The position numbers were made by a program, and so were the translations under genes. The notes under the pieces are model-generated. The model had not been told where the DNA came from. It did not search any database and was given only the letters and a program-made list of their open reading frames with translations. A DNA stretch of 59,566 nucleotides from positions 1-59,566 of the IMG/VR virus record IMGVR_UViG_3300015263_001819, one strand, 5' to 3'. Every line of letters begins with the position of its first letter. The first letter of the stretch is position 1. The stretch comes from a virus (lineage: Duplodnaviria > Caudoviricetes). Below, piece after piece: positions 2,601-55,396 of this stretch.

Positions 2601-3142
2601 TCGACGATCCGGAAAGCGAAGCGCCCGAAGCCGAGAGCGAAAGCGAAGCGCCCGCGGCCGAAGCGCCCGAGAAGCGCGGCCGGGCGCCGTTCACGCCGAT
2701 GCGTCGATGGCGGATCGGCGCGGCGCTCTTCGGCCAACCTAAATCGCCCGAGCATCGGCTCGCCATGTCCGAAGCCCACCGCAAAAGGAAGCGCTCCGAG
2801 GCCCACCGCAAGGCCATCTCCGAAGGCCGGCGTCGGCAAATCGCCGAGGGCAAAGCCGCGACCCACGAGCGCGCCCAAAAAGAGCACCTCGCCCGCAAGC
2901 GTCGGCAATACGAACTCGACCTTCTCCGAGCCTACGAGGCGGGTCGGATGGATTTGTATTGGGACGTGTGGGCGAGCCAAGGATGGCGCGAGGAGCGGTG
3001 GATCTTCGACTCGTCGGTCGTGTCCGACGGGACGGTCGCCCTCTACCGCCGCTCTCGCCGCCGGCGGAAGCTGCCCGACCACATCATCGAGACGTACTTC
3101 GCCCCAATCGTAAAGGAACTCCATGGCCTCCCCCGCGACTGA
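2597..3142 (+). CDS. NUMOD3-motif DNA-binding protein
   Basis: Tandem KSPEHRLAMSEAH / RSEAHRKAISEG motifs; ATGA overlap with terS. Confidence 0.55.
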   Translation: MIDDPESEAPEAESESEAPAAEAPEKRGRAPFTPMRRWRIGAALFGQPKSPEHRLAMSEAHRKRKRSEAHRKAISEGRRRQIAEGKAATHERAQKEHLARKRRQYELDLLRAYEAGRMDLYWDVWASQGWREERWIFDSSVVSDGTVALYRRSRRRRKLPDHIIETYFAPIVKELHGLPRD

Positions 3143-5215: not shown

Positions 5216-5710
5216 GTGAAAGTTGTAAAGACGACGAAGGCGACGGACGTCGCCGATGCGCTACGAGCTGGGGCGATCGGCGCCTTCGACGGCGAACGTG
5301 ACGTCTTCTATCTAGGCAAAGGGCCACATCCGCAGGCGTACGCCATTGAGATGTTCGACGAGTCCGAGTGGTATGTCGTCTACGCTGACGACGTCCCCGC
5401 GCCCGAGATCGATCCGCTCTCGCCGGACGATCGGCTTATCGTCGAACGGCACCGAAAGTCGTCCGACCGAGCCGTTCGGCGGATGATCGAATTGCTCGAT
5501 GTCTTCGCGCCCAAGCCCGCCTTGGATTTCGAGGAGTGCACACCCGGCGAGGCTTGCGATGCGGCGCTGTCGGGGGTCATCGTCGAGTACGAAACCGTCC
5601 GCGACGATTGGCGACGTCTAACCGATTCGCCCGGCGACGTGCAGTGGGCGAAGTCCCGATGGAGGAAGGCCAAGGCTAGGCCCCCGGAGACGGGGGGCGG
5701 CGCGGCGTGA
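5216..5710 (+). CDS. Accessory protein, paralog of 4798-5103
   Basis: SD gaggaggt; DPLS...APKP...EECTPGEA aligns with DPLT...APEP..VDCTFGEA. Confidence 0.7.
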   Translation: MKVVKTTKATDVADALRAGAIGAFDGERDVFYLGKGPHPQAYAIEMFDESEWYVVYADDVPAPEIDPLSPDDRLIVERHRKSSDRAVRRMIELLDVFAPKPALDFEECTPGEACDAALSGVIVEYETVRDDWRRLTDSPGDVQWAKSRWRKAKARPPETGGGAA

Positions 5711-5724: not shown

Positions 5725-7320
5725 ATGGCCGAAACCGTATCCGACGCCGCGCCGCCCGACGCCCCCGCCCCTCCCCGTCTCCGGGGGCTCGGCGATAGCC
5801 TCGGAGATCGTTTAGGGATTCCGGTTTTCGCCGTCGACGCGGTCGTCAACTCGATGACCGGAACGGGCACGACCCGCTCGAAGTCGACGTACAACCGCTA
5901 CGCCGCCGCCGCCCGCCTCTCCGAGGCGGACATCGAGATCCTCTTCCGGGACAACCCCCTCGCCCGCCGCATCGTCGCCAAGATGCCCGAGACCGCGCTC
6001 CGGGCGGGGTTCGGGATTCGCCGAGCGGGCGCCTCGCCGGCGGCCGACGCCGACGCCCGGATGAAGATCACCCGGCGATGGGCGGAGCTCGAGGGACCCA
6101 AGCGCCTCAAGCGCGGCGCGCAATGGGCGCGCGCCTTCGGCGGCGGTGGGCTCATCGTAGCTGCGACGGGCTCAGGCCCGCTCGACGCGCCTCTCGTGCC
6201 GTCGCGGGTGACGGCCGTCGAGCGCTTCATCGAGTGGGATCGCCAGCAACTCACCGAGTTTCAGTGGTATCCGGACGGCGAGCCGAGCCACTACCTCTTC
6301 ACCCCCCGACGCCGCGGCGTAAATCTAGCGCCGATGGTCGTCCACGCGTCTCGGGTGCTCGCGTTCCCCGCGGCCGACGCTACGGTCACCCAACGCGTCG
6401 AGAACGACGGGTGGGACGACTCGGTGCTCCAAGCCGTCTATGAGACGCTCCTCGACTACGACGGCTCGTGGGCGTCGATCACCGACATGTTCGCCGACGC
6501 AAGCCAAGCCGTCTTCAAGCTCTCAGGGCTCATCGAGTCGCTGACCGAGGGCAACGGCAACGACGGCGTGCGCGACGTGCTCACCCGCCTTCGGACGATG
6601 GACCTCACTCGTAGCTCGAGTCGCGCGCTCGTGCTCGACGCCGGCGACGAGAACGGCCGGGGCGGCGAGTCGTTCGAGGTCATCGACCGCTCGGGCTTCG
6701 GGACGCTCGCGCCTATGGTCATCCAAATGTTCGTCCGGTTGTGCGCGGCGGCGGACATGCCGATGACGGTGCTGCTCGGCACGTCCCCGTCGGGCCAAGA
6801 CGCTACCGGCGAGTCGGACATGGCGTTGTGGTTCAACTCCGTCGACGTCTACCGGCAAAGCCTGACGCCCTTCATCGCGGCGATGGTTCGGATGATCGCG
6901 TACGAAGTCGGCGACGAAGACCCGGAGAGCTGGGAAGTCGTGTGGCCGGAGCTTCAACGCCCCAAGCCGCTGGACGTGGCGACCGCGCGCAACATGACCG
7001 TCACGTCGATCATGCAGCTCATCGACAACAACGTCGTCACGCCCGAGGAAGTGGCGCTCTCGATGCCGTCGTGGGTCGAGGAGGGTCTTGCCGGGCTCGA
7101 CATCGACATGCCGGCGCGACTCGAGGCGCTCCCCGAAGCGCTCCGGGAGGTCGCCGAGCGCGACTATGCCGAGGAACCCCCCGAGCCCGCCGACGTGGGG
7201 CCCGGCCAACTCGATCCGGGCGAAGACCCCGAGCCCCCGGAAGACGGCCCGAAGCCTCCTCCAGAGCGGATGACGGAGAGAAAAACGCCGTCGAAGACCG
7301 CCGGGCGACAAATCGGCTAG
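5725..7320 (+). CDS. Portal protein (DUF1073-like)
   Basis: 531 aa after terL; LARRIV, WARAFGG, VHASRV, GWDDSVLQ, AAADMPMTVLLGTSPSGQDATGESD motifs typical of this portal family. Confidence 0.92.
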   Translation: MAETVSDAAPPDAPAPPRLRGLGDSLGDRLGIPVFAVDAVVNSMTGTGTTRSKSTYNRYAAAARLSEADIEILFRDNPLARRIVAKMPETALRAGFGIRRAGASPAADADARMKITRRWAELEGPKRLKRGAQWARAFGGGGLIVAATGSGPLDAPLVPSRVTAVERFIEWDRQQLTEFQWYPDGEPSHYLFTPRRRGVNLAPMVVHASRVLAFPAADATVTQRVENDGWDDSVLQAVYETLLDYDGSWASITDMFADASQAVFKLSGLIESLTEGNGNDGVRDVLTRLRTMDLTRSSSRALVLDAGDENGRGGESFEVIDRSGFGTLAPMVIQMFVRLCAAADMPMTVLLGTSPSGQDATGESDMALWFNSVDVYRQSLTPFIAAMVRMIAYEVGDEDPESWEVVWPELQRPKPLDVATARNMTVTSIMQLIDNNVVTPEEVALSMPSWVEEGLAGLDIDMPARLEALPEALREVAERDYAEEPPEPADVGPGQLDPGEDPEPPEDGPKPPPERMTERKTPSKTAGRQIG

Positions 7321-13344: not shown

Positions 13345-14247
13345 ATGCCCGTAATGCAGAGTACGTATTCCGACGCGCCCGGTCAGGGTTACCTGGGTCA
13401 GCTCATCAATTCGGCGGCCCCCCGCGCCATCCGAGCGCGCATCGCTCGCGGCTACGTGGACGCCGGCTACGCGGTGTTCCGCGCCGCGGCGGCCTTCGCC
13501 GGCTTCGGAACGTCGGGCACGAGCGACCCGGGCGAGATCTTCCAGCGCCCGAGTCCCGCGGCCGCGGCCGACGTCGACGCGTTGATCACGTCCATCACGA
13601 CCTCGACTTCGGTGCAGACCCTCGAGACGACCGACTTCGATGGCGTGGTGGGCCTCGATGAGATGTTCCCGCCCCGGCGCGTTACGCTGACCCTCAGCAA
13701 CCATGCGGACTGGGATGCGACCACGGCGGTCGTGACCGGCATCGATGCCGACACGAACCTCGAGGTCACCGAGAACCTCTCGATCCCCGACACCGGCAAC
13801 ACGACGTTGACCACGACCGGCTACTTCAAGTCGGTCTCGAAGCTGGTAATCCCCGCGCAGTCCGGCACCGGCGGCACGGCGACCTTCGGCATCGCGGCCA
13901 TGGCGACGCTGACGGCGGCGGACTTCGACGGCGTCGCCAAGCGTGACCTCGTCAAGCGCACCTTCTCGGCGGACGACGTCGCAAACGGCGTGGCGACGAC
14001 CACGGCGGACTTCGTCGACAACGAGACCGTCTCGGTGGTCCGCGTCGGGTCGCTGTGGGTGTACGCGGAAGAGGCCGTGAACGAAGGGGATTCGGTCTAC
14101 GTCCGCATCGCCTCCGGCGCCGGCGGAACCCACCTCGGAGCCTTCCGCAACGACTCGGATTCGAGCACGTGCGTCCAGCTCACGAACGCCTACTTCCGGG
14201 CCAAGGCATCGGCCGCGGGCCCCGTGCAGCTGACGATCCTCGCCTAA
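13345..14247 (+). CDS. Head decoration/cement-type structural protein with inserted domain
   Basis: Between scaffold and capsid; QSTYS..PG.GY.GQ N-terminus and VSVVRVGSLWV..EEAV..GD.VYVR C-terminus. Confidence 0.75.
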   Translation: MPVMQSTYSDAPGQGYLGQLINSAAPRAIRARIARGYVDAGYAVFRAAAAFAGFGTSGTSDPGEIFQRPSPAAAADVDALITSITTSTSVQTLETTDFDGVVGLDEMFPPRRVTLTLSNHADWDATTAVVTGIDADTNLEVTENLSIPDTGNTTLTTTGYFKSVSKLVIPAQSGTGGTATFGIAAMATLTAADFDGVAKRDLVKRTFSADDVANGVATTTADFVDNETVSVVRVGSLWVYAEEAVNEGDSVYVRIASGAGGTHLGAFRNDSDSSTCVQLTNAYFRAKASAAGPVQLTILA

Positions 14248-14384: not shown

Positions 14385-15416
14385 GTGGCTGAATACGTTC
14401 CGACTCAAGTCTACGATGCTGAGAGCTTCGAGGCCATCGACTCCGTGAAGGATGTCAACGGCGCGATCCTCGATGCGGTCCGCAACTTCAACCAAGCCTT
14501 GCCGGTGGGCGAGGCCGTGGACGACAACGAGAGCGTCATCTTCGCACGCCAGCTCGAGACCGTCAAGAACCGCGTCTACGAGATCCAGTACCCCGCGCTC
14601 CGCGGCCGGTCGTTCGTGCCGATGTCGAATGAGGCGGGGCCGAACACGAAGTATATCACCTACCGCGTGTGGGACAAGGTCACCTCAGCGGCGCTGATCT
14701 CCGACTACTCGACCGACTTCCCGAGTGTCTCGGCGAGCGCGCGCGAGCTGACGATCAAGTTCCACGACTACGGCAACTCGTTCGAGTACTCGATTCCGGA
14801 GCTGCGCGAGGCGCGTGAAGCCGGCGTCCCGCTCGACTCGAAGATGGCGGCGCTTTCTCGCGAAGGCATGGAGCGCGAGATCGACGCGGCCATCGCGTTC
14901 GGCGAGCCGGCCATCCGCACCTACGGATTGCTGAACCACCCGAACGTCGCGCTCGTGACGCTGCCCAACGGCCAGTGGACGACTTCGGCGACCGGCCTGC
15001 AAATGCTCGAGGATTTGAACGCGATGGTGTCCGCCGTCGAGGTCGACTCGAAGGACATCGAGAGCGTCACGAACGTGGTGATGGGTGTGGCGGACTACCG
15101 GCGCATCTCCACGACCTACGTGGACTCGGCGGGCGGGCGCGACACCGTTCTCCAGGCCTTCATGGCGCAGAACCCCGGCGTGACGGTCGACAAGTGGACC
15201 AAGGCGGAGCTGGCGTCGGCCGACGGCACGGGCTCGCGCATCGTGGCCTACTCGAAGCGCCCCGAGGTCCTCGAGTTCGAGATGGGTCTCGAGTACGAGA
15301 TCTACGGTCCGCAGGCCCACGCCTTCGTGCTGAAGTTCTTCGCTCGCGGCCGATGGGCCGGCCTCACGGTGCACCGCCCGAACGCGATCAAGTACGCCGA
15401 CGACCACAACGGCTAA
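14385..15416 (+). CDS. Major capsid protein (DUF2184-like, HK97 fold)
   Basis: FARQLE, YEIQYP, YSIPEL, AFGE...YGLLNHPNV, W...T..QMLEDL motifs; SD agaggag. Confidence 0.93.
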   Translation: MAEYVPTQVYDAESFEAIDSVKDVNGAILDAVRNFNQALPVGEAVDDNESVIFARQLETVKNRVYEIQYPALRGRSFVPMSNEAGPNTKYITYRVWDKVTSAALISDYSTDFPSVSASARELTIKFHDYGNSFEYSIPELREAREAGVPLDSKMAALSREGMEREIDAAIAFGEPAIRTYGLLNHPNVALVTLPNGQWTTSATGLQMLEDLNAMVSAVEVDSKDIESVTNVVMGVADYRRISTTYVDSAGGRDTVLQAFMAQNPGVTVDKWTKAELASADGTGSRIVAYSKRPEVLEFEMGLEYEIYGPQAHAFVLKFFARGRWAGLTVHRPNAIKYADDHNG

Positions 15417-41541: not shown

Positions 41542-42017
41542 CGTGCGCCTCCGTTTCCGGACGCCGGCGCGACGGGCGGTTCATGCAGGACGTAGTACTT
41601 GACGTCCTCGCCGTCGTACTCGATCCACCTATCACGCGAGTAGACATAAATGCCTTCGTCGTCCCCCTCTTCCTCGTGCTCTTTGCAGTCGAGCGTAGAT
41701 ACGCCGCCGCGAAACGCCACCCACGGGTTGTCGTCGCGGGGGCTGTCTCCGACCTCGCCTCCCGCTCGGGCGATGTCCCACGCCTCCGCCGAGCCGACGA
41801 CGCGCGGGGGCTTCGTTTCCGAGGCCGGCGCGGCGAGTTCGACGTGCGATGAAACGGTCACGACGGCGTGCAGCTCGGTGACGATCCGTCGTACTTCGAC
41901 AGAGCGGCTCTCGGAGAGCGAGAGCGCCTCGGCTTGCTTCAGCGCGTCGTCGAGGTCGTAGCGGCCGCCCTCCAAGCCGTCGACTTCGTAGTACATCTCT
42001 TTGTACGTCACGCTCAT
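41538..42017 (-). CDS. Hypothetical protein
   Basis: SD ggagg; shared domain with neighbour. Confidence 0.7.
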   Translation of the reverse strand: MSVTYKEMYYEVDGLEGGRYDLDDALKQAEALSLSESRSVEVRRIVTELHAVVTVSSHVELAAPASETKPPRVVGSAEAWDIARAGGEVGDSPRDDNPWVAFRGGVSTLDCKEHEEEGDDEGIYVYSRDRWIEYDGEDVKYYVLHEPPVAPASGNGGAR

Positions 42018-42757
42018 AGCACCCTCCAAAAAGTGGCGAAGCCGTCCGGCAACCGCCGATACTCAACCATCCGACCGACGACCTTCGCGCGGTTGGTGGC
42101 GAACGCGATGCGTTGCGCCTCGGAGAAACCTTGATCCAAAACGTCGCCACCTTCAAGTGAAATCGATACGCAACGATCCGATTCGACCTCGACCGAGGCG
42201 ACCCGTCCGGCTACGCATCGCGCGCGGGCGAGATACGACATCGCCGAGGCCGTCGCGCGGCCGTACACGTACGGCGCCGACTCCGAGCGGAGGACCACCC
42301 CGCCGAAGCCTTCGCCGACGGCCGAGCGCTCTAGGGTCTCGACTTGGGCCTTCGTCGCGCATCGGATTTGGGGGACGATCTCGACTTGCAGGTGATGGCG
42401 GAGCGAGCGCAATCGGTCCGCGAAAGGCTCGCGGCGGAGGTCCCAGTCCCCTCGGTCGAAGGCGTAGAACGTGAACGCCTCGGGCGGGGCGTCGCCGATG
42501 TTGGGGTCATCGAACGCCACGGATGCCTCGTAGCCTTTCGGCGCTCCGAAGGCGAGCACGCCGTCGTACCCCTCGAGGTCCGGCCCGGAGAACGTCGCGA
42601 GCGCGGCCAGCGAGGGCCCGACGAGCGGGCGGCCGTCGGCGCCAAGGACGACGCCCTTGCGGACGAAGGTGCGGCGCCCTATCAGCATCGGCGATACGAG
42701 AATCGGAAAATCGATACGGCGAGCGGCCGGCCAACAAACGGGCAGCATCGGTTTCAT
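42014..42757 (-). CDS. ATP-dependent DNA ligase homolog with degenerate catalytic motifs
   Basis: MKPML..FP..VSP, YDG.L, FYAFD, GF.GVVLR, Y.YGRAT, GFS..QR layout retained; KxDG replaced by MLIG. Confidence 0.75.
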   Translation of the reverse strand: MKPMLPVCWPAARRIDFPILVSPMLIGRRTFVRKGVVLGADGRPLVGPSLAALATFSGPDLEGYDGVLAFGAPKGYEASVAFDDPNIGDAPPEAFTFYAFDRGDWDLRREPFADRLRSLRHHLQVEIVPQIRCATKAQVETLERSAVGEGFGGVVLRSESAPYVYGRATASAMSYLARARCVAGRVASVEVESDRCVSISLEGGDVLDQGFSEAQRIAFATNRAKVVGRMVEYRRLPDGFATFWRVL

Positions 42758-43554
42758 GCGGACTCCTCGATACGGTCGAACGTCGCGGCGACGTCGGCGA
42801 TGGCTTCTTCGTGCGTATTGTATACACGTGCGACTATTTGCATACCCGTGGGGTCTTTGATTTGCACTGTCGCTGACGCGTGATCTGCGATCACGCGATA
42901 CTTCCCGCACTGTGTGCGGACGCACAGCATCGTCAATCCTCCTCTAGCACGCGAGGCCCAATCAGTCCATAACGCTCGGACGCAGCGCCATTCGTCGGAG
43001 TGCGAGAACTTCGGACGCGGAGAGACGATCCGGCCGTTGTCTACGTAGTAGATGCCGTACAACGCCATCTCCGTCTCCTTGTTTTGGTATATTCTCACCC
43101 CAGCATATATGTAGGCGTCCAGATAAGACAAGAACTCCTCGGCTGTACGGTAGCTAGACGCAGGGCGGCCGGGCACTGAAGCGAACACCGTGCCGCTCGG
43201 CATCTTGCAAGCCTCTACCTCTACCTCTCCCCAAGGCATGTCGAGCTTGCGCTTGAACGACTCGCCGACCTTCAAGTAGTAGAGCCCATAACGGGTGGCC
43301 ATATAGTCTTCGAGGGCGTTCGTGAGGTCCGCGGTGACCGGCTCGGGGTCGCACATCGGGCACTCTTCGTCGGCTCGGTGATGGCCGTGATACTTCGAGA
43401 CGGCGCACGGAATCATACGATCCGGCGCCCCGCCGCCGTACTCGGCGCGGAGTTCGTCGAGCGTTCGGTACGTTCCGTTTCTGTAGTACTTGCCAGTCCA
43501 GTACCCGGTGGCTTTCACCCACCCGTCTTTCGCGATGCGCGTGTCGAGATCCAT
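42754..43554 (-). CDS. Hypothetical protein with Cys/His motif
   Basis: SD ggagg; CAVSKYHGHHRADEECPMC. Confidence 0.7.
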   Translation of the reverse strand: MDLDTRIAKDGWVKATGYWTGKYYRNGTYRTLDELRAEYGGGAPDRMIPCAVSKYHGHHRADEECPMCDPEPVTADLTNALEDYMATRYGLYYLKVGESFKRKLDMPWGEVEVEACKMPSGTVFASVPGRPASSYRTAEEFLSYLDAYIYAGVRIYQNKETEMALYGIYYVDNGRIVSPRPKFSHSDEWRCVRALWTDWASRARGGLTMLCVRTQCGKYRVIADHASATVQIKDPTGMQIVARVYNTHEEAIADVAATFDRIEESA

Positions 43555-43821: not shown

Positions 43822-44604
43822 TTACTCCGTTTCGAGTCTGCGTACGAGCTTCACCCGCGCGGCACGGAACTTCCCGTCGGAGTTGTACGGAACAACGATG
43901 TCGGCCATGTCGGCGACTTCGATCAAGCACTCCCATACCGGTTGGTTTGGGTATTGCGCCCGGCACCATCCCGGCGTCGTAGCGACGTTCACACCACACC
44001 CACACGCGTCGGTGCGGTTGGGGTTCGGCGTCTCGGTAAGGTAGGCGCCTTCTTCGGCCTTCCATTCGCTTTTGAACGGATAGTTGGTTTGACCGACGGC
44101 TTTGTAGCACCGCACGCCATCGGCTCCTAAATTAGCCGCAAGAAAGTCGCGGGCGGTCAGCAAACCGGTCGCCCCCGAGAGGTCCGCCCCCGAGAGGTTC
44201 GCCCCCGAGAGGTTCGCCCCCGAGAGGTTCGCCCCCTCGAGGTTCGCCCCCGAGAGGTTCGCCCCGTAGAGGTTCGCCCCCGAGAGGTTCGCCCCCTCGA
44301 GGTTCGCGTACGATAGTTTCGCGTACGATAGTTTCGCGTCCGAGAGGTTCGCCCCCGAGAGTTTCGCGTCCGAGAGGGTCGCGTCCGAGAGGTTAGCCCC
44401 CGAGAGGCGAGCCCCCGAGAGGCGAGCCCCCGATAGGTTCGCCCCCGATAGGTTCGCCCTCGATAGGATCACCCCCGATAGGATCACCCCCGATAGGTTC
44501 GCCCTCAAGAGGTTCGCGTCCGAGAGGTTAGCCCTCTCCCCGCCTTCGCCTCTCAGCCACTTTCCGTGTTCCTCTACGATCTTCGCTAGCTCTTCTTTCG
44601 TCAT
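43822..44604 (-). CDS. Pentapeptide repeat protein
   Basis: Long A(N/D/K)LSG run encoded by 15-bp tandem repeats ~44170-44535; C-terminal CGCG and VPYNSDGKFR. Confidence 0.95.
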   Translation of the reverse strand: MTKEELAKIVEEHGKWLRGEGGERANLSDANLLRANLSGVILSGVILSRANLSGANLSGARLSGARLSGANLSDATLSDAKLSGANLSDAKLSYAKLSYANLEGANLSGANLYGANLSGANLEGANLSGANLSGANLSGADLSGATGLLTARDFLAANLGADGVRCYKAVGQTNYPFKSEWKAEEGAYLTETPNPNRTDACGCGVNVATTPGWCRAQYPNQPVWECLIEVADMADIVVPYNSDGKFRAARVKLVRRLETE

Positions 44605-45233
44605 GACTTGCCTCTCCCGGTGACGCGCGTCGACGCCGTGCGCGTGAACCGCACGCCTTCAATCGCCGGCTCGACGTTCGAGCCCTTCACCGTCTTAAGA
44701 TACGCTTTCACGGCGTCGGTGTCCAGCGTTTTCTTCACGAACGCGGCCGGGACGCGGTCGATGTCCTCGGCCTCGAACTTCCACGAGTACGTCGTGGCGG
44801 TGCCGGCGGTGGCTACGCGCTCGGGTACCGCGGCGACGATCGCGACGGCGGCCTCGGCGTCCCCTGTCTCGGCGGCGGCGCGCGCTTCGGCGAGGGCCTT
44901 GCGCTCCGCCTCGGCGATGGCGAGGTCGTACTCGCTCATCTTCCGCGAGGCGAGGGCTTTGAAAGCCTTTACGTGCTCGGCGGTCTTGGCGAACTCCTCG
45001 TCGACTCGGCGCTTGGACTCGAGCAACGGGCGCGTAAGGTTTACTCGATCCTCTTCGAGTCCCTTCAGAACGGACTGGGCGTGAGCGGCTTGGGTCGCCC
45101 ACCAATCTTTTTGCGCCGGGGTGCTGCACGGCCGCGCTTCGAAGCGGGCCGCGAGCGGTTTCCACGTGGCGACGACGAGGGCGAGGTGGTGTCGGTCGAT
45201 GGGGTCGACGTAATCGGGTTCGGACTCGGACAT
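44601..45233 (-). CDS. Coiled-coil phage protein (Gp157/Gam-like)
   Basis: LEE.R...T.P, WKFE..D...VP, IEGV.F motifs. Confidence 0.6.
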   Translation of the reverse strand: MSESEPDYVDPIDRHHLALVVATWKPLAARFEARPCSTPAQKDWWATQAAHAQSVLKGLEEDRVNLTRPLLESKRRVDEEFAKTAEHVKAFKALASRKMSEYDLAIAEAERKALAEARAAAETGDAEAAVAIVAAVPERVATAGTATTYSWKFEAEDIDRVPAAFVKKTLDTDAVKAYLKTVKGSNVEPAIEGVRFTRTASTRVTGRGKS

Positions 45234-45691
45234 AGCGGATCCATTCTGCCTAGGGCGTAGAGGCCGATGCCGACGGCATCGATGGCGTTATGTCGCAGCT
45301 TAGCGGGTTTTACGCGCTCGACCATCGCTTTTTCTTCGTCGTCGAGCGCAGCGAGGATGCGTGGTTGATGAATCTCTTTTGGGACGGCGCCCTTCCAATC
45401 CGACGGGGCGTAGTACGTATGCGCGCGCATGGCGCCCGCTACGACAGACACGTCCATTAGATCTTGGTGGGCGAAGCGCATCTTGCGCCCGCGGGTGGTC
45501 ATCCTCTCGCACACTCGCCGAGCGCCCGGCGGATCGGGGACTCGCGCGACGTGGGCGAGCGCGCACTCGCCGAGCGTTCCCTTCGCCCGGGAGAGCCCGA
45601 CGTCGACGAGGCGCCCGCCGCGAAACTCGGCGTAGCCGAGGGTTTTGATACCGGGGTCGACAGCGACGAGGACTTCGAACGATTCGGTCAT
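45065..45691 (-). CDS. ruvC: RuvC-like Holliday junction resolvase
   Basis: VAVDPG, CE, P..WKG, HNAIDAVGIG; C-terminal tail overlaps next gene. Confidence 0.8.
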   Translation of the reverse strand: MTESFEVLVAVDPGIKTLGYAEFRGGRLVDVGLSRAKGTLGECALAHVARVPDPPGARRVCERMTTRGRKMRFAHQDLMDVSVVAGAMRAHTYYAPSDWKGAVPKEIHQPRILAALDDEEKAMVERVKPAKLRHNAIDAVGIGLYALGRMDPLCPSPNPITSTPSTDTTSPSSSPRGNRSRPASKRGRAAPRRKKIGGRPKPLTPSPF

Positions 45692-45734: not shown

Positions 45735-46598
45735 TCAGCCGTCGGCGTCGCGCGCGTCGAGGTACTTCCGGTAGTGCGCCGGGAGCCCCGCCGAGCATCC
45801 CTTGACGATGTCCTTCCAGATCTTCGGCCACAACGCGTCGCGGATCTCGGCCTCGGACTCTTCGGTCAAGTCGCGGGCGTGCTCGCGCATGAGCGCCCCG
45901 ACGTCGCGCATCGAGAACTCCAAGTCGCCCGCTTCGCGGAGGTGCTGGATGCACTTGTCCCAATGCGCCTCGGTGCCGTACTGCGTGATGTAGTCATGCA
46001 CGGACGACGTCTTCGGCGGCTTTTGCCCGGTCTTCTCGAGGAAGGCCTTACCGACCCACTTCGCTTTCGCCCGGTCGGCCCCGCCGCCGACGCGTTTGAT
46101 GACGATGCCCTCGCGCGGGCCGCCGAGCATGGACGGCCCCTCGACTAGCTTCTCGAGGTCCGAGGACGTGTAGAGCCCGGTGGGGGCGATGAGCGGGACG
46201 ACCTCGAGGCCTAGCTCGTCGGCGAGGGCTTCCACAGACACTCGATCGAAGTAGCCACCGTCGAGCTGCGCGTCGAAGACGACAAGCCCAGCGGCTGGCG
46301 CTCGCTCGTAGGTGAGCTTGTTGTGGCGTGGTGCGCACACTGCCTCGGCGCGTACGGTCAAACCCGGCTCGAACTTCGGGGCGAGCGCCCGGGCCGTCTC
46401 GACCGCCTTACGGAAGAGCTTGTCGGTCGTGTTCCAATCCAGCAAACCGCCGCGCGAGGCGCACCACACGACCCCGTCCGGCGACTTGCCGAAGGAGAAT
46501 TGCGAGCCGTCGATCTTCTCCTCGACGTAGACCGGCTCCCGAAGGATGTCCGAGACCTCGCGCTTGCCGATGTGAATGACTTTGCCGTAGCTCTCCAT
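45735..46598 (-). CDS. RNA ligase (Rnl2-like nucleotidyltransferase)
   Basis: EEKIDGSQ, AEA, VVFD, VVP, REGIVIK, KAKWV...F.E. Confidence 0.85.
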   Translation of the reverse strand: MESYGKVIHIGKREVSDILREPVYVEEKIDGSQFSFGKSPDGVVWCASRGGLLDWNTTDKLFRKAVETARALAPKFEPGLTVRAEAVCAPRHNKLTYERAPAAGLVVFDAQLDGGYFDRVSVEALADELGLEVVPLIAPTGLYTSSDLEKLVEGPSMLGGPREGIVIKRVGGGADRAKAKWVGKAFLEKTGQKPPKTSSVHDYITQYGTEAHWDKCIQHLREAGDLEFSMRDVGALMREHARDLTEESEAEIRDALWPKIWKDIVKGCSAGLPAHYRKYLDARDADG

Positions 46599-46601
46599 GC
46601 G

Positions 46602-47723
46602 TCAACCCTCGTCGTCGTTAGAGACGACCAAAAACGAATCGTGGTCGGCGAAGATCGCCGAGAAGACCGCCATCGACGCTTTGACCGGATCGGCGGGGTT
46701 CATGCCCATCGCCTCGCGTACGCGCCGCTCGACGTACGCGTCGATCGGTGGTGGCGAGTACAAATCCAAGCCCTCCCCGGGGAACTTCGCCGCGAAGGCG
46801 GCGCGGAAGGCGTCTCGATGGGCGTAGTCGTCTAGGTCGACGTCCCATTCTCCGGGGTCGGCGTAGTAGCGGTAGTCGACGACGTGCTCGTGCGTGGACA
46901 GCCACGCTTCGACGTCGACGTACGTCGAGGGAACGATCGGTTTCCCGAAGAAATCCACGGGGGTACGCTCAGCGTCTCGCACCGCCTTGGCCGTAAGCTC
47001 CAAATCGTCGAGGATGTTGGCTGACGGTGACGACCACCCGGACTGGGTACTAGGCTCCGGAGCGTACGCCAGCGGCGCCGTGTATTCCAGCGACGCCGAA
47101 CGGTACGAGTTCTTCGAGGTGTAGTAGCCTTTCTCGTCGAACGTGACGTCTTCTTCGACGCGATCACCGTTCACGTCGGTTCCGACGATCCGGACGGCGG
47201 ACGAGCCAACGGGTACGTCGCTCGCCGGGACTCTAAAGCGCGGCTTCGCGAAGTACTCCTCGAGGGCGTCTTGGATGCGCGCCCGGAGCGCGGCGTCGTA
47301 TTCGCCGACGTAGTAACGCGCCGGAGTTTCGATTACGTACTCGTCATGCAGGAAGTGGCCCACTTCCTTTTCGGCTTCGGTGTAAGTCAACACGCCGGCG
47401 TCGATGAGCGCCTGGAACTCGGCGAGCTTCTCGGCGGCCGGGCGGGGGGAGTGCGTCTTGCACGGGACGTCGACGCGTGACGGCCAATCCGCGATCGCGT
47501 TCCCGTAGCCCGCGGCGGCGGGCGGGCTCCCTATCAACGCCGGCGGCTCGTACATGCCGTGCTGGATTGGCGACGTCTCGAAGTCGAAGGCCTTGGTGCC
47601 TACGCGGATCGATTTGATCACCGCGTTGACGACCGGTGTCTTCGGCGGCTCACAATACGGGCACGGCGAGTCGGCGTCGTGGTGTCCGTGCCACTCGGAC
47701 TTCGCGCATTGGATGAGAGTCAT
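46602..47723 (-). CDS. Mosaic hypothetical protein
   Basis: SD aaagga; contains short segments resembling other phage proteins. Confidence 0.75.
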   Translation of the reverse strand: MTLIQCAKSEWHGHHDADSPCPYCEPPKTPVVNAVIKSIRVGTKAFDFETSPIQHGMYEPPALIGSPPAAAGYGNAIADWPSRVDVPCKTHSPRPAAEKLAEFQALIDAGVLTYTEAEKEVGHFLHDEYVIETPARYYVGEYDAALRARIQDALEEYFAKPRFRVPASDVPVGSSAVRIVGTDVNGDRVEEDVTFDEKGYYTSKNSYRSASLEYTAPLAYAPEPSTQSGWSSPSANILDDLELTAKAVRDAERTPVDFFGKPIVPSTYVDVEAWLSTHEHVVDYRYYADPGEWDVDLDDYAHRDAFRAAFAAKFPGEGLDLYSPPPIDAYVERRVREAMGMNPADPVKASMAVFSAIFADHDSFLVVSNDDEG

Positions 47724-49418: not shown

Positions 49419-51536
49419 CTACGCAGCTTCTTCGTACGGGATGAGTTCGCCGTTTCGGTAGACCGGATCGCCGGCGGCCTTCGACCACCGATACGACGCC
49501 GCGGGCAGCGCCGAGAAATACAAATCCGGGCAGTACTCCTTAGCGGTGCTGATCATGATGCGAGCCATCTCGTTACCGGCTTCGTGGATGAGCTCGCGGG
49601 GTACTTCGTAGAGCCATTCGTCATGGATGAACGCCAATGGTCGGCACCCGTACAACGGCGACCGTCGGTTCTCGTACGCCGCCTCGACTAGGCGCCATCC
49701 GGCTGCCGTGGCGATGTCCGCGGCGAGGCCTTGGAACATCCCGTTTGCCGCGTCGCAAAAGCCCACGTCGCCGCGCAGGCGCTTGGAAACGAATTGCTCG
49801 ATGGTCGCCCGCGCGCCGTACCGACCGCCGAGGAGGTCTTGTGAGACCCAATCGAGGTACGGTTGCGACTCGGCGTAGATCTCCCGCCACACCCGGCACG
49901 CGAGTTCGGCTTCCTCAATCGAGATAGTGACGCCGTAGGACTTGAAGCAATAATCCACGAGTCGCGCCGCACCCATCCCGCCGGGCAAGCCGAAGTTCGG
50001 CCCCTTCGCGAGCCCGCGAAGCTTCTTTAGCCACGTCTTTTCGTCCTTCGTCCCCTTCTTCCACCGGTAGGCTTCCTCGACCGAGACGTGCTCGCCATGC
50101 TCGTTCTTCCACAACCGCGCGCCCATCTCGATGTGAGGGCACCGCGCCGGGTCGTTGAGGATCTCGCGCAAGTCCGAATAGCCGAGCACCCAAAAGCACA
50201 CTTGCGCCCACGTCCGAAGCTCGAACGAGTCGTAGTCCACCGAGACGATGCACCACTTCGGCCGGACGATCGTATTCAACGCGTCGGAGAACGTCAAACC
50301 CCGGGCGCGTTGCTCGTGGATGAACCGCGCCACGTCTCGGGCGATGAAGCACTCGCGCGTTCCGGGCTTGTGCGTCTCCTTGCCCGTCGTCGGGTCGATG
50401 AGCTTGATATCCCGTAGTTGGTTTTGCATTTGCATGCCGTAGGACGACCACGGCTCTCCGGGCGCCGGATCGTCGCCTTGGCGGGACGACGTTCGGCCGG
50501 TGTTCACGACGGGGTTGTACGAGCACTGGATGGGCTTGCCGGCCTCGGCCGCGCGCACGAGCCTAAGCACCTTCGACATCGTCGTAGAGGCTTGGGTGAA
50601 CTCCCGGTAGTCCTCGAGCAGCGGGTCTTTCAGCTCCCGAAGCGTGTCCGCGTCTAGTTTGATGTTGCCCTCGGTGAGCCCCTTCTCGAGCATCTTCTCG
50701 GTCGGAGCGCCGCGCGGGACATCGCGCCCCGTCCGGCGGCACACCTCGACGACGAGCGCCTCGGCCGCCTTCTTGTCCTTCTGAACGAACATCTCACCTT
50801 TGCGCTTTACCCACCGTGCTAGCCCGTGCTTCAAGATCGAGGCTTGCGCTTGGTCGATGCGTGCGGCAGTATCGGCGGCGAGTTCCCGGGCTTGGTGTAT
50901 GTCGACCGCGAAGCCCCAACACGACGTGAGGTGAAGCGAGACCGACGTCTTGAGTTTGTTGTGTTGGTCGATGAGGTACTGCGGATCGACTTGCTCTTGG
51001 CGGAAGTAGACGTCTCGCGTCGCGACGTCGCCGAGGGCGTACTCGACCGCCTCCGCCGGCCACTCCGTGATCGGCTTGCCGTAGAGCGTCCCATAGCGCG
51101 TACGCCACGGCGACTTCTTGTCGAGCATGATCGGGAGCCGCCAATACTCGCACACGTCATCGAGCGCGTACGTAAGGTTCTTGAGCCGCGCGTCATCGCC
51201 GCGCCCGATGCGGATGAGCTTGTCGCGGATGTACGTGCACCGGATGCGACCCTCCCGCAGGGCTTGGAAGATGAGCGGCGTCCACTCCGGGCGCCACGCC
51301 ATCATTACGCCGACCTCGAACGCGGCGTTGTGCGCCACCATCACGACGTTCGGGTCGCGTAGGCACTTCTCGAGCAACGACGGCAAGAACGGCGTCCACG
51401 CCGGCACGAGCTTCGGCGCATCGCGGTCGAAGGCGTACGCGCAACACACCGGCGGCGGGGCGAGCGCGCCGGGCTGGATCGGGAAGGTCTCAAAGTCGAA
51501 GAAGAAGTACCTAGTTCGGGGAGCGCGAGCGGACAC
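49419..51536 (-). CDS. polA: Family A DNA polymerase with 3'-5' exonuclease
   Basis: Exo DFET, AHNAAFE, YALGD; TGRTSS, QN; motif A DYDSFELR, motif B R..AK..NF, motif C IHDE. Confidence 0.96.
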   Translation of the reverse strand: MSARAPRTRYFFFDFETFPIQPGALAPPPVCCAYAFDRDAPKLVPAWTPFLPSLLEKCLRDPNVVMVAHNAAFEVGVMMAWRPEWTPLIFQALREGRIRCTYIRDKLIRIGRGDDARLKNLTYALDDVCEYWRLPIMLDKKSPWRTRYGTLYGKPITEWPAEAVEYALGDVATRDVYFRQEQVDPQYLIDQHNKLKTSVSLHLTSCWGFAVDIHQARELAADTAARIDQAQASILKHGLARWVKRKGEMFVQKDKKAAEALVVEVCRRTGRDVPRGAPTEKMLEKGLTEGNIKLDADTLRELKDPLLEDYREFTQASTTMSKVLRLVRAAEAGKPIQCSYNPVVNTGRTSSRQGDDPAPGEPWSSYGMQMQNQLRDIKLIDPTTGKETHKPGTRECFIARDVARFIHEQRARGLTFSDALNTIVRPKWCIVSVDYDSFELRTWAQVCFWVLGYSDLREILNDPARCPHIEMGARLWKNEHGEHVSVEEAYRWKKGTKDEKTWLKKLRGLAKGPNFGLPGGMGAARLVDYCFKSYGVTISIEEAELACRVWREIYAESQPYLDWVSQDLLGGRYGARATIEQFVSKRLRGDVGFCDAANGMFQGLAADIATAAGWRLVEAAYENRRSPLYGCRPLAFIHDEWLYEVPRELIHEAGNEMARIMISTAKEYCPDLYFSALPAASYRWSKAAGDPVYRNGELIPYEEAA

Positions 51537-51894
51537 GGTTCACCTGACGGGCGAGGAGTTCTTCTTCGTTTCGAGCGCACCACTCCAGTACCGCGGCGTA
51601 ATGCGGGTACTGGCGGTCCATGATGTTGAACGCGGCGTCATGTTCGTGGAAGCCGAGGGCGTGGACCATCTCGTGGTGGATGGTCGACATGACCACGATG
51701 TCGGGCACCCACGGGTCGCGAAGTACCGGGTTTAGGGCGATGTGCTTCGCATCGATGTAGCACCTAGCGAAGACGATGTGACGCTTGGAGCGTGTGCGTA
51801 GCGTCCACCCGATGGACCACTCCGAAAGCGAGTCGGAGAAAAAGACGCGGTCGAGCGCGGCCTTCGACTCCTCCAGCCACGCTCGGTCTCTCAT
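51511..51894 (-). CDS. SprT/WLM-like zinc metallopeptidase
   Basis: I.LNP.L, HHEMVH, HD..F. Confidence 0.75.
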   Translation of the reverse strand: MRDRAWLEESKAALDRVFFSDSLSEWSIGWTLRTRSKRHIVFARCYIDAKHIALNPVLRDPWVPDIVVMSTIHHEMVHALGFHEHDAAFNIMDRQYPHYAAVLEWCARNEEELLARQVNRVRSRSPN

Positions 51895-52607
51895 TCGACG
51901 ACCACCAACGGCAGTCCACGATGCGGATGCACGTAGGATGTTTCGTGCACGTAGAAGCCCTCCGCGTCTTTGAGTTTCACGCCGAGAGAGAGGGCTTTGG
52001 ATACTTCATCCGGGTCACCGCACTCGATGGCTTCGCGGTCCAAGTAGTGGTCTGGCCATTCGATGACGTCCGTGGTGGACAGCAAGTTCCCCACTGACAG
52101 ACGGGAGCCGTACGCAGTACGGACTACACAACCTGCAAACAGCAGATCGTCTACGGCAAACCCTGGCGTATGGCGCCACTTCCACGCGTAGCGCTTCGCC
52201 GGCGGCGGGTTCTCGGGGGTGTGGACTTCGGCCGCGGCCCGGAGCGCCGCTAGATGCGCGACCGTCTCCCGGAGGCGCTCGGATTCTTCCGAGGCCTTCC
52301 CTGGGCGCATGCGGTTGTCCTCCATCGTGCCATTGATTTGCGCATCGAGCACGATCATCAAACTCGCCGCGGCATGGGCGAGGTTGTGCACGTGCGAGTC
52401 CGAGGCGCACTCCTCGCCGTCGAGCCAATTGGCGATGTGGCGCATCGCCGCGGCGCAGTACGAACGGGCCTCGACGGGGATCTCCCGCCAGTTCCCCGGG
52501 CCGTATTTGAGCCCCGACATCATCGCCACCGCAATGTGCATGAGCGCGGTGGGCGGCACGAGTGAGAGGTCCGGCTTGGCAGCGCCGGCGATGTCCTTCG
52601 GGTTCAT
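51891..52607 (-). CDS. dATP/dGTP diphosphohydrolase-domain protein (DUF5664-like) with C-terminal extension
   Basis: NPKD..G..K..LSLVP, KYG..NWR, AAMRH, DS..HNLAHA.A motifs. Confidence 0.85.
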   Translation of the reverse strand: MNPKDIAGAAKPDLSLVPPTALMHIAVAMMSGLKYGPGNWREIPVEARSYCAAAMRHIANWLDGEECASDSHVHNLAHAAASLMIVLDAQINGTMEDNRMRPGKASEESERLRETVAHLAALRAAAEVHTPENPPPAKRYAWKWRHTPGFAVDDLLFAGCVVRTAYGSRLSVGNLLSTTDVIEWPDHYLDREAIECGDPDEVSKALSLGVKLKDAEGFYVHETSYVHPHRGLPLVVVE

Positions 52608-53167
52608 CGTACGGCCCCCACGACCGAAGACGCCGCCGCGCGACGGAACCACCGCCACACCGCTTGCGCCTCGGCGAGTTCGTTCTCGCAGTCCGGCATC
52701 GACCGATGTGGCACTCCGGCGTGCGGGTAGGCGATGTCGATGACCGCGCCGGCGGCCTTCGCCTTTCGGAGCTGCGCGCCGGTATCGTCGACTCGGTGCG
52801 ACATCAACGTCGCCGCCCGGGGTAGGTCCTTCCGGCAGAACTCGAGATCGAAGTGTTTGGACCGACCGACGAGCACGACCGACTTTTCGCCGACGTTCGG
52901 GCCGAGCGACTTCAACCAATCGAAGAGTTCGTTATCAACGTCGATCGGCGTGCGGCCTTCGCCGCGGTCGAGCGCCGCGAGGAGACCGTTCTTCTCGTGC
53001 ATGTCGAGCGCGATCGGGTCGCGGAATTCTTCTCGGTTCGCGTCGACGATCGCGTGGAAGCGCGCGACTTCTTCGTAGTCGTCGTTGACGGCGATGGCGC
53101 CGACTTCGACGACGTAGTCGTACTCGTAGTCGAGCCCTGTGGTTTCTAGGTCTAGAACAACTTTCAT
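52604..53167 (-). CDS. DEDDh 3'-5' exonuclease (oligoribonuclease-like)
   Basis: LDLETTGLD, MHEKNGL, HFD..F, HR.D, HRSMPD. Confidence 0.88.
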   Translation of the reverse strand: MKVVLDLETTGLDYEYDYVVEVGAIAVNDDYEEVARFHAIVDANREEFRDPIALDMHEKNGLLAALDRGEGRTPIDVDNELFDWLKSLGPNVGEKSVVLVGRSKHFDLEFCRKDLPRAATLMSHRVDDTGAQLRKAKAAGAVIDIAYPHAGVPHRSMPDCENELAEAQAVWRWFRRAAASSVVGAVR

Positions 53168-53475: not shown

Positions 53476-53778
53476 TTACGCTTTGAACCAAACCGGCGGA
53501 TCTCCGTATCCGACCGCTCCCGGCGTATGCCTTACGCTGTCTCCGCATACTTGACTCGCATCTACCGTTATGCTCTCCGAGTCTCGGCAATTCTGCACGC
53601 GGACAATCAGCGAACGTCCATCGCCTCCAACCAACGTAGCCAGCACAGCTCCGTCTCTAATGTGGCCGATCCACTCCACCACTGAAACCGAACTTCCATA
53701 CGCCGTCGCGATCGTCACGACTCTCTCGGAAGAGAACAACGCATCGGTGACTTCAGCTTTCACCCAAATCTTGGTCAT
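53476..53778 (-). CDS. Hypothetical protein
   Basis: SD aaggaggt; ATGA coupling. Confidence 0.65.
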   Translation of the reverse strand: MTKIWVKAEVTDALFSSERVVTIATAYGSSVSVVEWIGHIRDGAVLATLVGGDGRSLIVRVQNCRDSESITVDASQVCGDSVRHTPGAVGYGDPPVWFKA

Positions 53779-55121
53779 CGCATACCTCCTTTGTAACGCT
53801 TGCCGACGAAGATGACGATTTGACGCTTGCCGTCTTCGTACAGCGGACAACATGCTTGAACCCACGAAGAAGGCAAGCCGTTATAGCGGTGGTCGAGCGC
53901 CGAGCCGACGCCGACGCGGAAGAAACCGTCGCGAATCCACGGCGTGTGTGAGTGCGCGCCCGTGACCTTCACGCCCATTCGTACGTACGTGAGCACCGAT
54001 GCTCGCGCACCGTTCGCCCCTCGGTCGGCGTGGAAGCCGTGCTCGACGCCCCGCACGCGGAACGAGTCCCCACGCCGAAGGAAGTCGACGTTCTTCGGCA
54101 CCCCCAACCGGCGGCACTCAAGCGCGAGCATGTCCGGCCACGACCCATGAGCCTCACGGTAGTCGTACGCGCGCGCCCACGCCCGGCAAAAGTACGGGTC
54201 GTTGCGCGGGTCGCGGTCGCGGCGGTGTTCGTCTAGCCACCGTTCGAAGTGCTCGTCGTGGTTCGAGCGGACGACCTTCACCCGCGGCACTTTAGTCGAG
54301 ACGTCGGTCAAGTACGCCGCGACGCGCTCGACTTCGTTCTCGACCGAGAGCGGGTGGCGATCGTACCACTCCCGGTGCGTGCGGATATGGTGGTTGCGCG
54401 CGAACATGTCGAGCACGTCGTGCAGCACCAACGACGTCGGCGAGAGTTCGGCGATCAGGCGTTCGGTGGCCGCCGTAAGGTCGGCGTCTTCCCATCCGAC
54501 GTGCACATCGCCGAGCGTGAGCGTGAGCGTCTTAGCTGGGCCTAGGTCGCCCTCGGGGCCGTAGCGTCGGCCGAGGTCGATGAAGCGCCCTTGCGAGTCG
54601 GTCGAGATGTGCCGGACGAAGTACGAACCATCGCGGTCGACCTCGACGATCACCCCGCCGTAGACGTGGTGCTCGCGGGCCTTGCGCCCCGCCTTCGAGT
54701 CGGTGTAGTTCGCGCGGGTGACCGCGCCGGTGGTCCACAGGATCTTCGGCGAACGCGTCGAGGTCGGGACGACCTCGAGTGCTCGGCGAGGGTGGCCGAA
54801 GATGCCCGAAGACTTGCCGGCGAAGACCTCGAAGCCGGAGAGCGGACGCGTCGCCGTCGGCTGGATCGACATGTCGCCGAAGACGCGCAAGTTACGCGAG
54901 AGCGAGCGACATCCGTGGTCAACGTACGGCGCGATATCGGCGTGCCACCAATCATCGTCCGCGTCGCCGGCGGCCCACACCGACGTCGGGTTTTTGTAGC
55001 GCCCGGGGACGACGATGAGCTGCCCTCGGTGGTCGGAGCACCACCGTTTGAACGCCGCCAACGTCGGGGCGTGGGGCGGGGTCGCGTTTTGCGCCCACGT
55101 AACGATGTAGCGCTCGGTCAT
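53775..55121 (-). CDS. Calcineurin-like metallophosphoesterase
   Basis: GDVH, HDVLD, SNHD, FH.D.G.NG, AHSHTP; N-terminal YIVTWAQNAT domain. Confidence 0.85.
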   Translation of the reverse strand: MTERYIVTWAQNATPPHAPTLAAFKRWCSDHRGQLIVVPGRYKNPTSVWAAGDADDDWWHADIAPYVDHGCRSLSRNLRVFGDMSIQPTATRPLSGFEVFAGKSSGIFGHPRRALEVVPTSTRSPKILWTTGAVTRANYTDSKAGRKAREHHVYGGVIVEVDRDGSYFVRHISTDSQGRFIDLGRRYGPEGDLGPAKTLTLTLGDVHVGWEDADLTAATERLIAELSPTSLVLHDVLDMFARNHHIRTHREWYDRHPLSVENEVERVAAYLTDVSTKVPRVKVVRSNHDEHFERWLDEHRRDRDPRNDPYFCRAWARAYDYREAHGSWPDMLALECRRLGVPKNVDFLRRGDSFRVRGVEHGFHADRGANGARASVLTYVRMGVKVTGAHSHTPWIRDGFFRVGVGSALDHRYNGLPSSWVQACCPLYEDGKRQIVIFVGKRYKGGMR

Positions 55122-55396
55122 ACCAACCTCGCCGAGCGTTGCCACTCGTACAGGCCTTTTCTTTCGGCGATCCAATGCGTCACGGCTATCGTACCGAAAC
55201 CTTCCCGCCTTACGGCGTCCACGTCCATGAACGACGTCACTATGTGGCTCTTAGGTACCCACACTTGGCCGAGACTCGACGACAGCAACCAAGCCTTCGG
55301 CGTCTCGTGCACTAGACGCGCATCGAAAACGACAGGCTCCTCTTCGGCCGCGCCTGGATCAAAGTCTAGAAAATCGTGGTAGTCTAGTGCGCCCAT
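55118..55396 (-). CDS. Small phage protein
   Basis: HETPKAWL...WVPKS...W.A..KGL motif. Confidence 0.7.
   Translation of the reverse strand: MGALDYHDFLDFDPGAAEEEPVVFDARLVHETPKAWLLSSSLGQVWVPKSHIVTSFMDVDAVRREGFGTIAVTHWIAERKGLYEWQRSARLV

Follow-up and report, generated by a model that had tools for sequence, protein, structure and literature searches.

P0001, the protein studied here, is an ordinary phage protein of very narrow distribution, assembled by domain shuffling, which has a putative zinc knuckle and probably contains one small polA-derived scrap. The explanation that best accounts for our findings, to which we assign a probability of roughly 0.55, is that of a modular orphan combining a duplicated Cys/His domain, a polA-derived patch and a ligase-accessory role. 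The original prediction had described a chain stitched together from fragments of the phage's polymerase, portal, head and capsid proteins. Under shuffle controls, the criterion that the original prediction had itself set for its refutation, this mosaic dissolved for three of its four pieces and held, modestly, for the PolA-like stretch; the modularity of P0001 is of the kind usual in phages, and virion proteins have not supplied its pieces.

The window analysed, 59,566 bases long (G+C 61-67%), spans a complete IMG/VR virus record and comes from a myovirus-like phage. Structural genes occupy the + strand, where terminase is followed by portal, protease, major head and sheath genes, and those for DNA metabolism are found on the - strand, beginning at about 39.8 kb (Table 1). 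P0001 is a real, single intact gene, translationally coupled to both neighbours: its ATG at 47723 overlaps the stop codon of the upstream gene (ATGA), which encodes a coiled-coil-like protein of 186 aa, the sequence GGAAAG lies a few bases upstream, and 3 nt separate its own stop codon from the ATG of an RNA ligase gene. GC3 is between 0.75 and 0.95 in every 40-codon window from the ATG, compared with 0.60 in the in-frame upstream extension, and because the profile drops upstream of the ATG, we read P0001 as one evenly coding gene starting at 47723. The product is acidic (pI 4.65; 61 D+E versus 33 K+R; net charge about -28), and its arm of the genome also includes one T5 A1-like gene and one with pentapeptide repeats. 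Among sequencing runs, one DNA run contains the stretch and may be where it came from, and no RNA run is listed.

Table 1. Coordinates of P0001, its segments and related genes within the window.
Feature	Position	Strand	Basis or remark
Terminase	3123-4604	+	
DNA-ligase homologue, motif I lysine replaced	42014..42757	-	PDB 7obn 'DNA ligase', E 5.6e-12; Chlorella virus ligase, 2.4e-7
Paralogue P0008, 266 aa, Cys/His motif at residues 51-69	42754..43554	-	BLASTP and motif
RNA ligase	45735..46598	-	PF09414, 9.5e-14; phrog_548, 2.3e-19; EEKIDG present
Target gene P0001	46602..47723	-	373 aa plus stop; by translation
C-terminal domain, residues 230-373 (about)	46605..47036	-	Common to metagenomic P0003; holds 'capsid-like' stretch
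Middle region, residues 125-225	47049..47351	-	No homologue; holds 'gene 13345-like' stretch
N-terminal domain, residues 3-124	47352..47717	-	Paralogous to gene 42754-43554
PolA-like stretch, residues 43-71 (FDFET..IQ.G...PP...GS)	47511..47597	-	11/16 identical to PolA residues 13-28
Cys/His motif, residues 3-26 (C6, H12, H15, C21, C24), putative zinc knuckle	47646..47717	-	Invariant in 3 lineages
PolA residues 13-33, ExoI signature resembled by the P0001 stretch	51438..51500	-	Signature also in 34 IMG/VR PolA loci

The N-terminal domain is the part of P0001 with the clearest relatives. Its Cys/His motif, spaced C-x5-H-x2-H-x5-C-x2-C, contains residues that are invariant among P0001, its paralogue P0008 and a third protein, P0004 (C6, S9, H12, G13, H15, A17, C21, P22, C24, E25 and P26). 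At the level of sequence, the four conserved metal ligands in two knuckles that characterize zinc ribbons and knuckles are present, and we regard the motif as a putative zinc knuckle that would bind metal. Across all six frames of the window, a regular expression for the motif has exactly two matches, one in P0001 and one in P0008. Homology between these two extends beyond the motif, as residues 3-124 of P0001 align with residues 47-166 of P0008 (BLASTP, 30% over 126 aa, E 1e-9), their Smith-Waterman score of 105 was equalled by none of 300 shuffles (maximum 57), and a search of the phage's own genome recovers P0008 as a second locus (E 3.7e-7). P0004 (311 aa) shares only the Cys/His motif with P0001 (BLASTP, 15/23 identical, E 1e-9), and shares more with P0008 than with P0001.

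The C-terminal domain has a separate relative in P0003 (275 aa), which BLASTP matches to P0001 at residues 271-371 (E 4e-12) and 236-274 (E 2e-4). Once trimmed, the alignment shows 37% identity, with the common elements ILxDLxLxAKAVR (W..IL[DE]DL.L.AKAVR) and LDLYSPPP. In the window, tblastn of P0003 matches the C-terminal place of P0001 only, and the N-terminus of P0003 bears a CxxC...CxC motif of its own. Of the N-terminal domain, then, one metagenomic protein cluster has just the Cys/His motif, and the C-terminal domain occurs in a different metagenomic protein. The middle region had no match in any search.

The family is very narrow, and P0001 is an orphan whose Cys/His motif is distinctive. 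When 1.84 billion representatives were searched exhaustively with phmmer, four proteins were obtained at E<=0.001, which were the query, P0002, P0003 and P0004. We treat P0002, a repeat protein aligned over seven stretches (E 4e-22), as a spurious repeat artefact, given that BLASTP reaches only 6e-4 per repeat. A word-indexed homologue search recovered the query only among 4399 candidates, and an alignment-based search (A3) of proteins of 81-394 aa recovered only P0003 and P0001 among 6005; no relative was found among proteins of 395-2000 aa, nor did any of 50,697 phage records match P0001 by tblastn, and scans of viral, genome and metagenome contigs with P0001, P0003, P0004 and the alignments A3 and A5 yielded no confirmed relative. 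A weak match of P0004 to ORF 5216-5710 (E 0.12) was set aside, as that ORF lacks the Cys/His motif.

Searches for a known fold gave a similar picture. P0001 matched nothing in Pfam, PHROGs, NCBIfam, PADLOC or PDB sequences; P0003-P0007 matched nothing in Pfam; and no PADLOC family was reported at E<=1 for P0001, P0008, P0003 or P0004. No Walker A, HAD DxDxT, KxDG or ExoII motif occurs in P0001, which therefore lacks the P-loop and HAD marks of a polynucleotide kinase/phosphatase. AF2 modelled full-length P0001 with a pLDDT of 40.5, and the N-terminal domain, from three sequences, with 42.2 overall and about 72 at residues 1-20, where two short strands are predicted. A beta-hairpin was modelled at residues 38-47, and the middle region was modelled as helices with a beta-meander at 177-214 (pLDDT 56-69), such that some confidence attaches only to residues 1-20 and to the meander. 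The ESM Atlas models are likewise of low confidence (0.45 for P0001, 0.59 for P0008), and their structural neighbours reach TM <= 0.32.

The peptides on which the proposed mosaic was built all exist where it had placed them. FDFETSPIQHG..PP lies in P0001 and FDFETFPIQPG..PP begins at PolA residue 13, LIDNNVVT is located in ORF 5725-7320, VTGIDADTN..TTTGYFKS in ORF 13345-14247, and WTTSATGLQMLEDL in ORF 14385-15416. The identities assumed for these genes are also correct by profile matches, being portal (phrog_146, 9.3e-71), a virion structural protein for gene 13345 (phrog_563, 2.1e-17), the major head protein for capsid (phrog_264, 3.4e-64), and PolA (PF00476, 3.7e-12; phrog_17, 3.5e-42). The resemblances themselves were assessed by comparing the best Smith-Waterman score of P0001 against each protein with those of 300 shuffles of P0001. 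Scores for portal (42), gene 13345 (36) and capsid (45) were equalled by 93, 124 and 29 shuffles, respectively, and that for PolA (57) by two. Taken alone, the quoted segments score 23 for portal, 22 for gene 13345 and 26 for capsid, all below the mean best score of shuffles (35-40), versus 57 for PolA, and for portal and gene 13345 the best alignment with P0001 is one other than the quoted segment. Ranked by score among 78 phage proteins, portal is placed 12th, gene 13345 34th, capsid fourth and PolA second. With profiles of equal depth built from phage records (six sequences each), P0001 was absent from the output of the capsid profile, scored -3.6 bits with that of portal (equalled by 574/2000 shuffles), and scored 6.6 bits with that of PolA (E 0.0098; 1/2000). 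The portal and capsid likenesses are thus at chance level by both approaches, and that of gene 13345 by pairwise comparison. Further, the 'portal-like' LIDAGVLT helix aligns with P0008 as part of the common N-terminal domain, and the 'capsid-like' W..ILDDLELTAKAVR stretch, because it is kept in P0003, is a conserved feature of the small P0001/P0003 family.

The fourth resemblance is borderline in pairwise comparison, and gains its strength from profiles. Across the whole proteome, the maximum score reaches PolA's 57 in 24/150 shuffles, and BLASTP against all 630 six-frame ORFs of the window assigns the PolA segment an E of 0.21; in pairwise comparison, the paralogue P0008 is the only significant match. 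A scan of IMG/VR with two PolAs yielded 34 loci, all of which carry the ExoI signature, although its conservation among them is in part built in, as they were retrieved by this motif. With the window's own PolA left out, an HMM of these loci matches residues 43-67 of P0001 at 7.5 bits (E 0.0054, Z=79; 1/2000 shuffles), and with it added, at 8.2 bits (0/2000). P0001 is the top non-PolA match of this HMM, both among 79 proteins (8.2 bits; next 1.5) and among the 630 six-frame ORFs (7.2 versus 1.5). The likeness reaches 35-45 residues by tblastn in several clade members (best E 0.016), and the nearest annotated PolA (MW202816, 27% identical) retains FD.ET..IQPG.LAPP.VC at its N-terminus. In P0001, FDFET (residues 46-50) places the D-x-E of DEDD (DnaQ-like) exonucleases on a hydrophobic strand, and aligns to the ExoI columns of the HMM. 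Of the DNA similarity that had been claimed, the two 27-nt strings do exist and are identical at 22/27 positions (and 36/48 nt), but there is no excess over codon bias: codons coincide for 8 of the 11 identical residues, compared with 6.2 +/- 1.6 expected from codon usage. As the DNA likeness is no higher than this bias predicts, the stretch is not a recent DNA copy.

The match covers only positions 9-35 of the PolA model, and wider relationship to PolA was rejected. A collinear chain of further matches, including FLHDE against motif C, scored 76 (38 +/- 6 in shuffles; 0/200); however, with the first segment masked the chain falls to 53, where 51 is attained against PolA by unrelated phage proteins, and chain scores of 71-73 occur for other protein pairs. 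P0001 lacks the motifs of a family-A polymerase palm/fingers domain (A, B and C); FLHDE alone resembles one of them, motif C, and its score in the six-sequence PolA profile is -3.3 bits (pairwise E 0.13). The ExoII pattern (N-x2-3-[FY]-D) is absent from P0001, the sole Y-x3-D, the ExoIII pattern, lies at residue 300 and so lacks the proper spacing, and no domain-length DEDD exonuclease match was found, nor any Pfam match at E<=0.1. Hence the only part of P0001 with a probable, though uncertain, relationship to the N-terminus of PolA is one stretch of about 25 residues.

The surroundings of this stretch are informative. When the Cys/His motif is excluded, homology between P0001 and P0008 begins only at residue 73 (1/1000 shuffles), that between P0008 and P0004 covers the segment directly after the motif (1/1000), and P0001 and P0004 show none (394/1000). 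Since homology to P0008 starts at residue 73 and there is none to P0004, residues 30-72 stand out as the odd piece of the N-terminal domain, which fits an old replacement by polA-derived sequence. We favour, with some reserve, the view that residues 43-71 are an old and diverged patch from the 5' end of a polA of the PolA clade. Such a patch would carry the ExoI strand and the loop that follows it, would have replaced part of the N-terminal domain, and would have no exonuclease function of its own. Of the two origins that had been offered for the supposed mosaic, only the by-product of illegitimate recombination survives, for the PolA-like stretch alone and at modest strength (7.5 bits, 1/2000 shuffles).

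The genomic company of the Cys/His domain suggests what P0001 may do. Both carriers of the motif lie directly upstream of a ligase-family gene, with stop and start codons that overlap or nearly so; in the case of P0008, its stop overlaps the ATG of the DNA-ligase homologue (ATGA). The RNA ligase beside P0001 has an intact KxDG, and the homologue beside P0008, which is kin to ATP-dependent DNA ligases, reads MLIGRR where three phage relatives have KLDGIR. Between the two ligases there is hardly any similarity (E 0.13). We propose a zinc-dependent ligase-accessory role because both paralogues are translationally coupled to the ligase-family gene directly downstream, a role that gene order in this one genome suggests. 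In all three phage relatives examined, no Cys/His gene lies within 2.5 kb of the DNA-ligase relatives. Tentatively, the Cys/His motif may bind zinc and P0001 may assist, in a non-catalytic way, the genes with which the phage joins and repairs nucleic acids. A more elaborate version, which we consider rather improbable, would make P0001 and P0008 founders of a new zinc-knuckle accessory family in duplicated two-gene cassettes, one with an active RNA ligase and one with a lysine-less pseudo-ligase, that act in repair or counter-defence, the polA-derived stretch having been kept in the RNA-ligase-linked copy to engage a factor that recognises the polymerase N-terminus.

Other readings of P0001 need to be weighed against this one. 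It is possible, if somewhat doubtful, that the same modular protein resembles PolA by coincidence, a beta-strand in which hydrophobic and acidic residues alternate, with a proline-rich loop after it, mimicking ExoI. The proteome-wide pairwise tests, which fall short of significance, are consistent with such a coincidence, as are the choice of the PolA match by looking freely through the entire genome, the lack of codon-level excess with polA, and the failure of any second PolA segment to hold (the HDE-like segment scores below zero, and the masked chain is on a par with pairs of unrelated natural proteins). The beta-hairpin modelled at residues 38-47, and VDIAT in P0004 at the position aligned with FDFET, point the same way. 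Against chance stand the profile built without the window's own PolA, the 5.7 bits that separate P0001 from the next of 630 six-frame ORFs, the extension of the likeness in other PolAs, and the fact that the matched residues are those conserved across the PolA clade. If FDFET is instead taken at face value, as its fit to the ExoI pattern invites, P0001 might be a degenerate stand-alone 3'-5' exonuclease, or an end-healing partner of the RNA ligase. In MW202692, an RNA-ligase homologue sits between a putative nucleotidyltransferase and a polynucleotide kinase, and a repair partner beside the ligase of P0001 would therefore be expected. We consider an enzyme of either kind very improbable, as P0001 lacks the ExoII, Walker A, HAD DxDxT and KxDG motifs, is unlike the upstream protein of MW202692 (best E 1.7) and matches nothing in Pfam, NCBIfam or PDB; moreover, the PolA HMM match is confined to its short segment, and neither P0008 nor P0004 has the DxE.

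A third possibility places P0001 outside ligase biology, as an acidic, zinc-anchored binder for host takeover or anti-defence whose C-terminal domain sets the host target. Its marked negative charge, the very narrow family, and the T5 A1-like and pentapeptide-repeat genes of the same arm agree with this, as do the module pairings in its relatives, where P0008 and P0004 combine the Cys/His motif with unrelated C-terminal parts and P0003 has a different Cys motif attached to the C-terminal domain. Such module swapping is common in fast-evolving phage accessory genes. We nevertheless consider a host binder unlikely, because no PADLOC or PHROG family is matched, and because it leaves the ligase coupling at both copies unexplained. 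Least probable of all is the decoy or epitope array of the original prediction, in which fragments of portal, head, capsid and polymerase would saturate or blind Avs or CapRel sensors. The gene does lie in the non-structural arm, and one polymerase-like stretch is above chance; however, three of the four fragments are at chance by shuffle and profile controls, the 'portal-like' and 'capsid-like' pieces are conserved features of non-virion homologues, and no PADLOC model matches. FDFET, for its part, is the ExoI motif of the PolA exonuclease domain, and in DEDD exonucleases the ExoI strand is buried, rather than exposed as a surface epitope. The premise that portal, capsid and polymerase trigger Avs is true according to the abstract of PMC13581612, which counts portal, capsid and DNA polymerase among the proteins sensed by Avs families, and describes this sensing as pattern recognition based on the structure of whole phage proteins. 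We would not expect linear stretches of 8-14 residues to imitate triggers of that kind, and P0001 has no folded virion-protein domain by Pfam or PHROG match, so that the array reading is left unsupported.

More broadly, a self-mimicking decoy array would, if real, have amounted to a new counter-defence principle, and the controls show none in P0001. The probable small polA-derived patch, if confirmed as such, would be an example of phage genes gaining in-frame scraps. The repeated order of a Cys/His protein followed by a ligase-fold protein is a lead towards a phage ligase accessory factor, and the pairings behind this lead include a ligase homologue without the catalytic lysine.

Compared with the triggers of Avs and CapRel, of which portal, capsid and DNA polymerase are known examples (abstract of PMC13581612), P0001 carries no folded part of any, and its likenesses to portal and capsid do not rise above chance. 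As in the phage RNA-repair cassette of MW202692 (RNA ligase with polynucleotide kinase), the RNA ligase here is tightly packed in a DNA/RNA-metabolism arm, whereas P0001 lacks a kinase or phosphatase motif and differs from the upstream protein of that cassette. With the N-terminal ExoI signature of the PolA clade (FD[TF]ET..IQPGLLAPP.VC), residues 43-71 of P0001 share F, D, E, T, I, Q, G and PP in the same order, and some clade members also share GS.AAA; unlike these polymerases, P0001 matches over about 25 residues only, lacks ExoII, ExoIII and polymerase motifs as well as any Pfam DNA_pol_A or exonuclease match, and has a paralogue, P0008, without the stretch. Small zinc-ribbon and zinc-knuckle modules are a generic class in phage proteins, and P0001 resembles them in its invariant Cys/His set, its CPxC second knuckle, its position at the extreme N-terminus and its two modelled short strands, although its spacing matches no Pfam, NCBIfam or PHROG model. 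Lastly, eukaryotic DNA ligase III carries a nick-sensing zinc finger, which we take, with no claim of sequence relation, as a model of how a zinc module may help a ligase to find its substrate; that finger is fused to its ligase, whereas P0001 is encoded separately.

A ligase-fold gene lies directly downstream of each of the two Cys/His paralogues, P0001 (the gene under study, which carries a putative zinc-knuckle motif near its N-terminus) and P0008, the junction being an ATGA overlap in one pair and a 3-nt spacer in the other. In all three of the other phages examined, a Cys/His neighbour is absent beside the DNA-ligase relative. In the ligase homologue downstream of P0008, motif I reads MLIGRR vs KLDGIR in three phage relatives by sequence comparison, so it has lost both the lysine that takes part in adenylylation and the aspartate; arginines also stand opposite the motif V lysines in the alignment. 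The product of this homologue is possibly a pseudo-ligase.

Features of the record discussed here
Feature	Coordinates	Strand	Match or membership
P0001, Cys/His paralogue	46602-47723	-	
P0008, Cys/His paralogue	42754-43554	-	
ATP-dependent DNA ligase homologue	42014-42757	-	PDB 7obn, E 5.6e-12; phrog_114, 1.3e-7
Pentapeptide-repeat protein, DNA-metabolism arm	43822-44604	-	PF00805, 6.9e-57
ORF with a weak RuvC-like match, and the overlapping next ORF	45065-45691 and 44601-45233	-	phrog_159, E 0.046
PolA, family-A DNA polymerase	49419-51536	-	clade present at 34 IMG/VR loci (L005-L038)
dATP/dGTP diphosphohydrolase N-terminal domain	51891-52919	-	PF18909, 4.1e-24
T5 A1-like 'DNA transfer protein'	53775-55175	-	phrog_1745, 2.7e-124

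Contigs bearing the PolA-clade loci are mostly 22-47 kb. Overall identity within this clade is only 26-30%, and the N-terminal FD.ET..IQPGLLAPP.VC is near-invariant, a conservation to be read in light of the retrieval of all 34 loci through that motif itself. Elsewhere in the DNA-metabolism arm, the ORF with the RuvC-like match shares approximately 170 nt with the next ORF, and because of this overlap the boundaries of genes around 44601-45691 are uncertain. The diphosphohydrolase domain is tied to aminoadenine (Z) genomes; a search of the whole record for an adenylosuccinate-synthetase-like (PurZ) gene with PF00709 gave 0 matches.

The P0001 gene is listed on a 73,652-base contig in the protein collection, and the virus record, rated 100% complete by CheckV, spans 59,566 bases. 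The longer contig may include a terminal repeat or concatemer; alternatively, the full genome may extend beyond what the record contains. With regard to host, the best phage relatives of the A1-like protein share 33-38% identity with it and infect Stenotrophomonas, Xanthomonas, Dinoroseobacter and Rhodobacter, which hints, through the hosts of these relatives, at a proteobacterial host for this phage.
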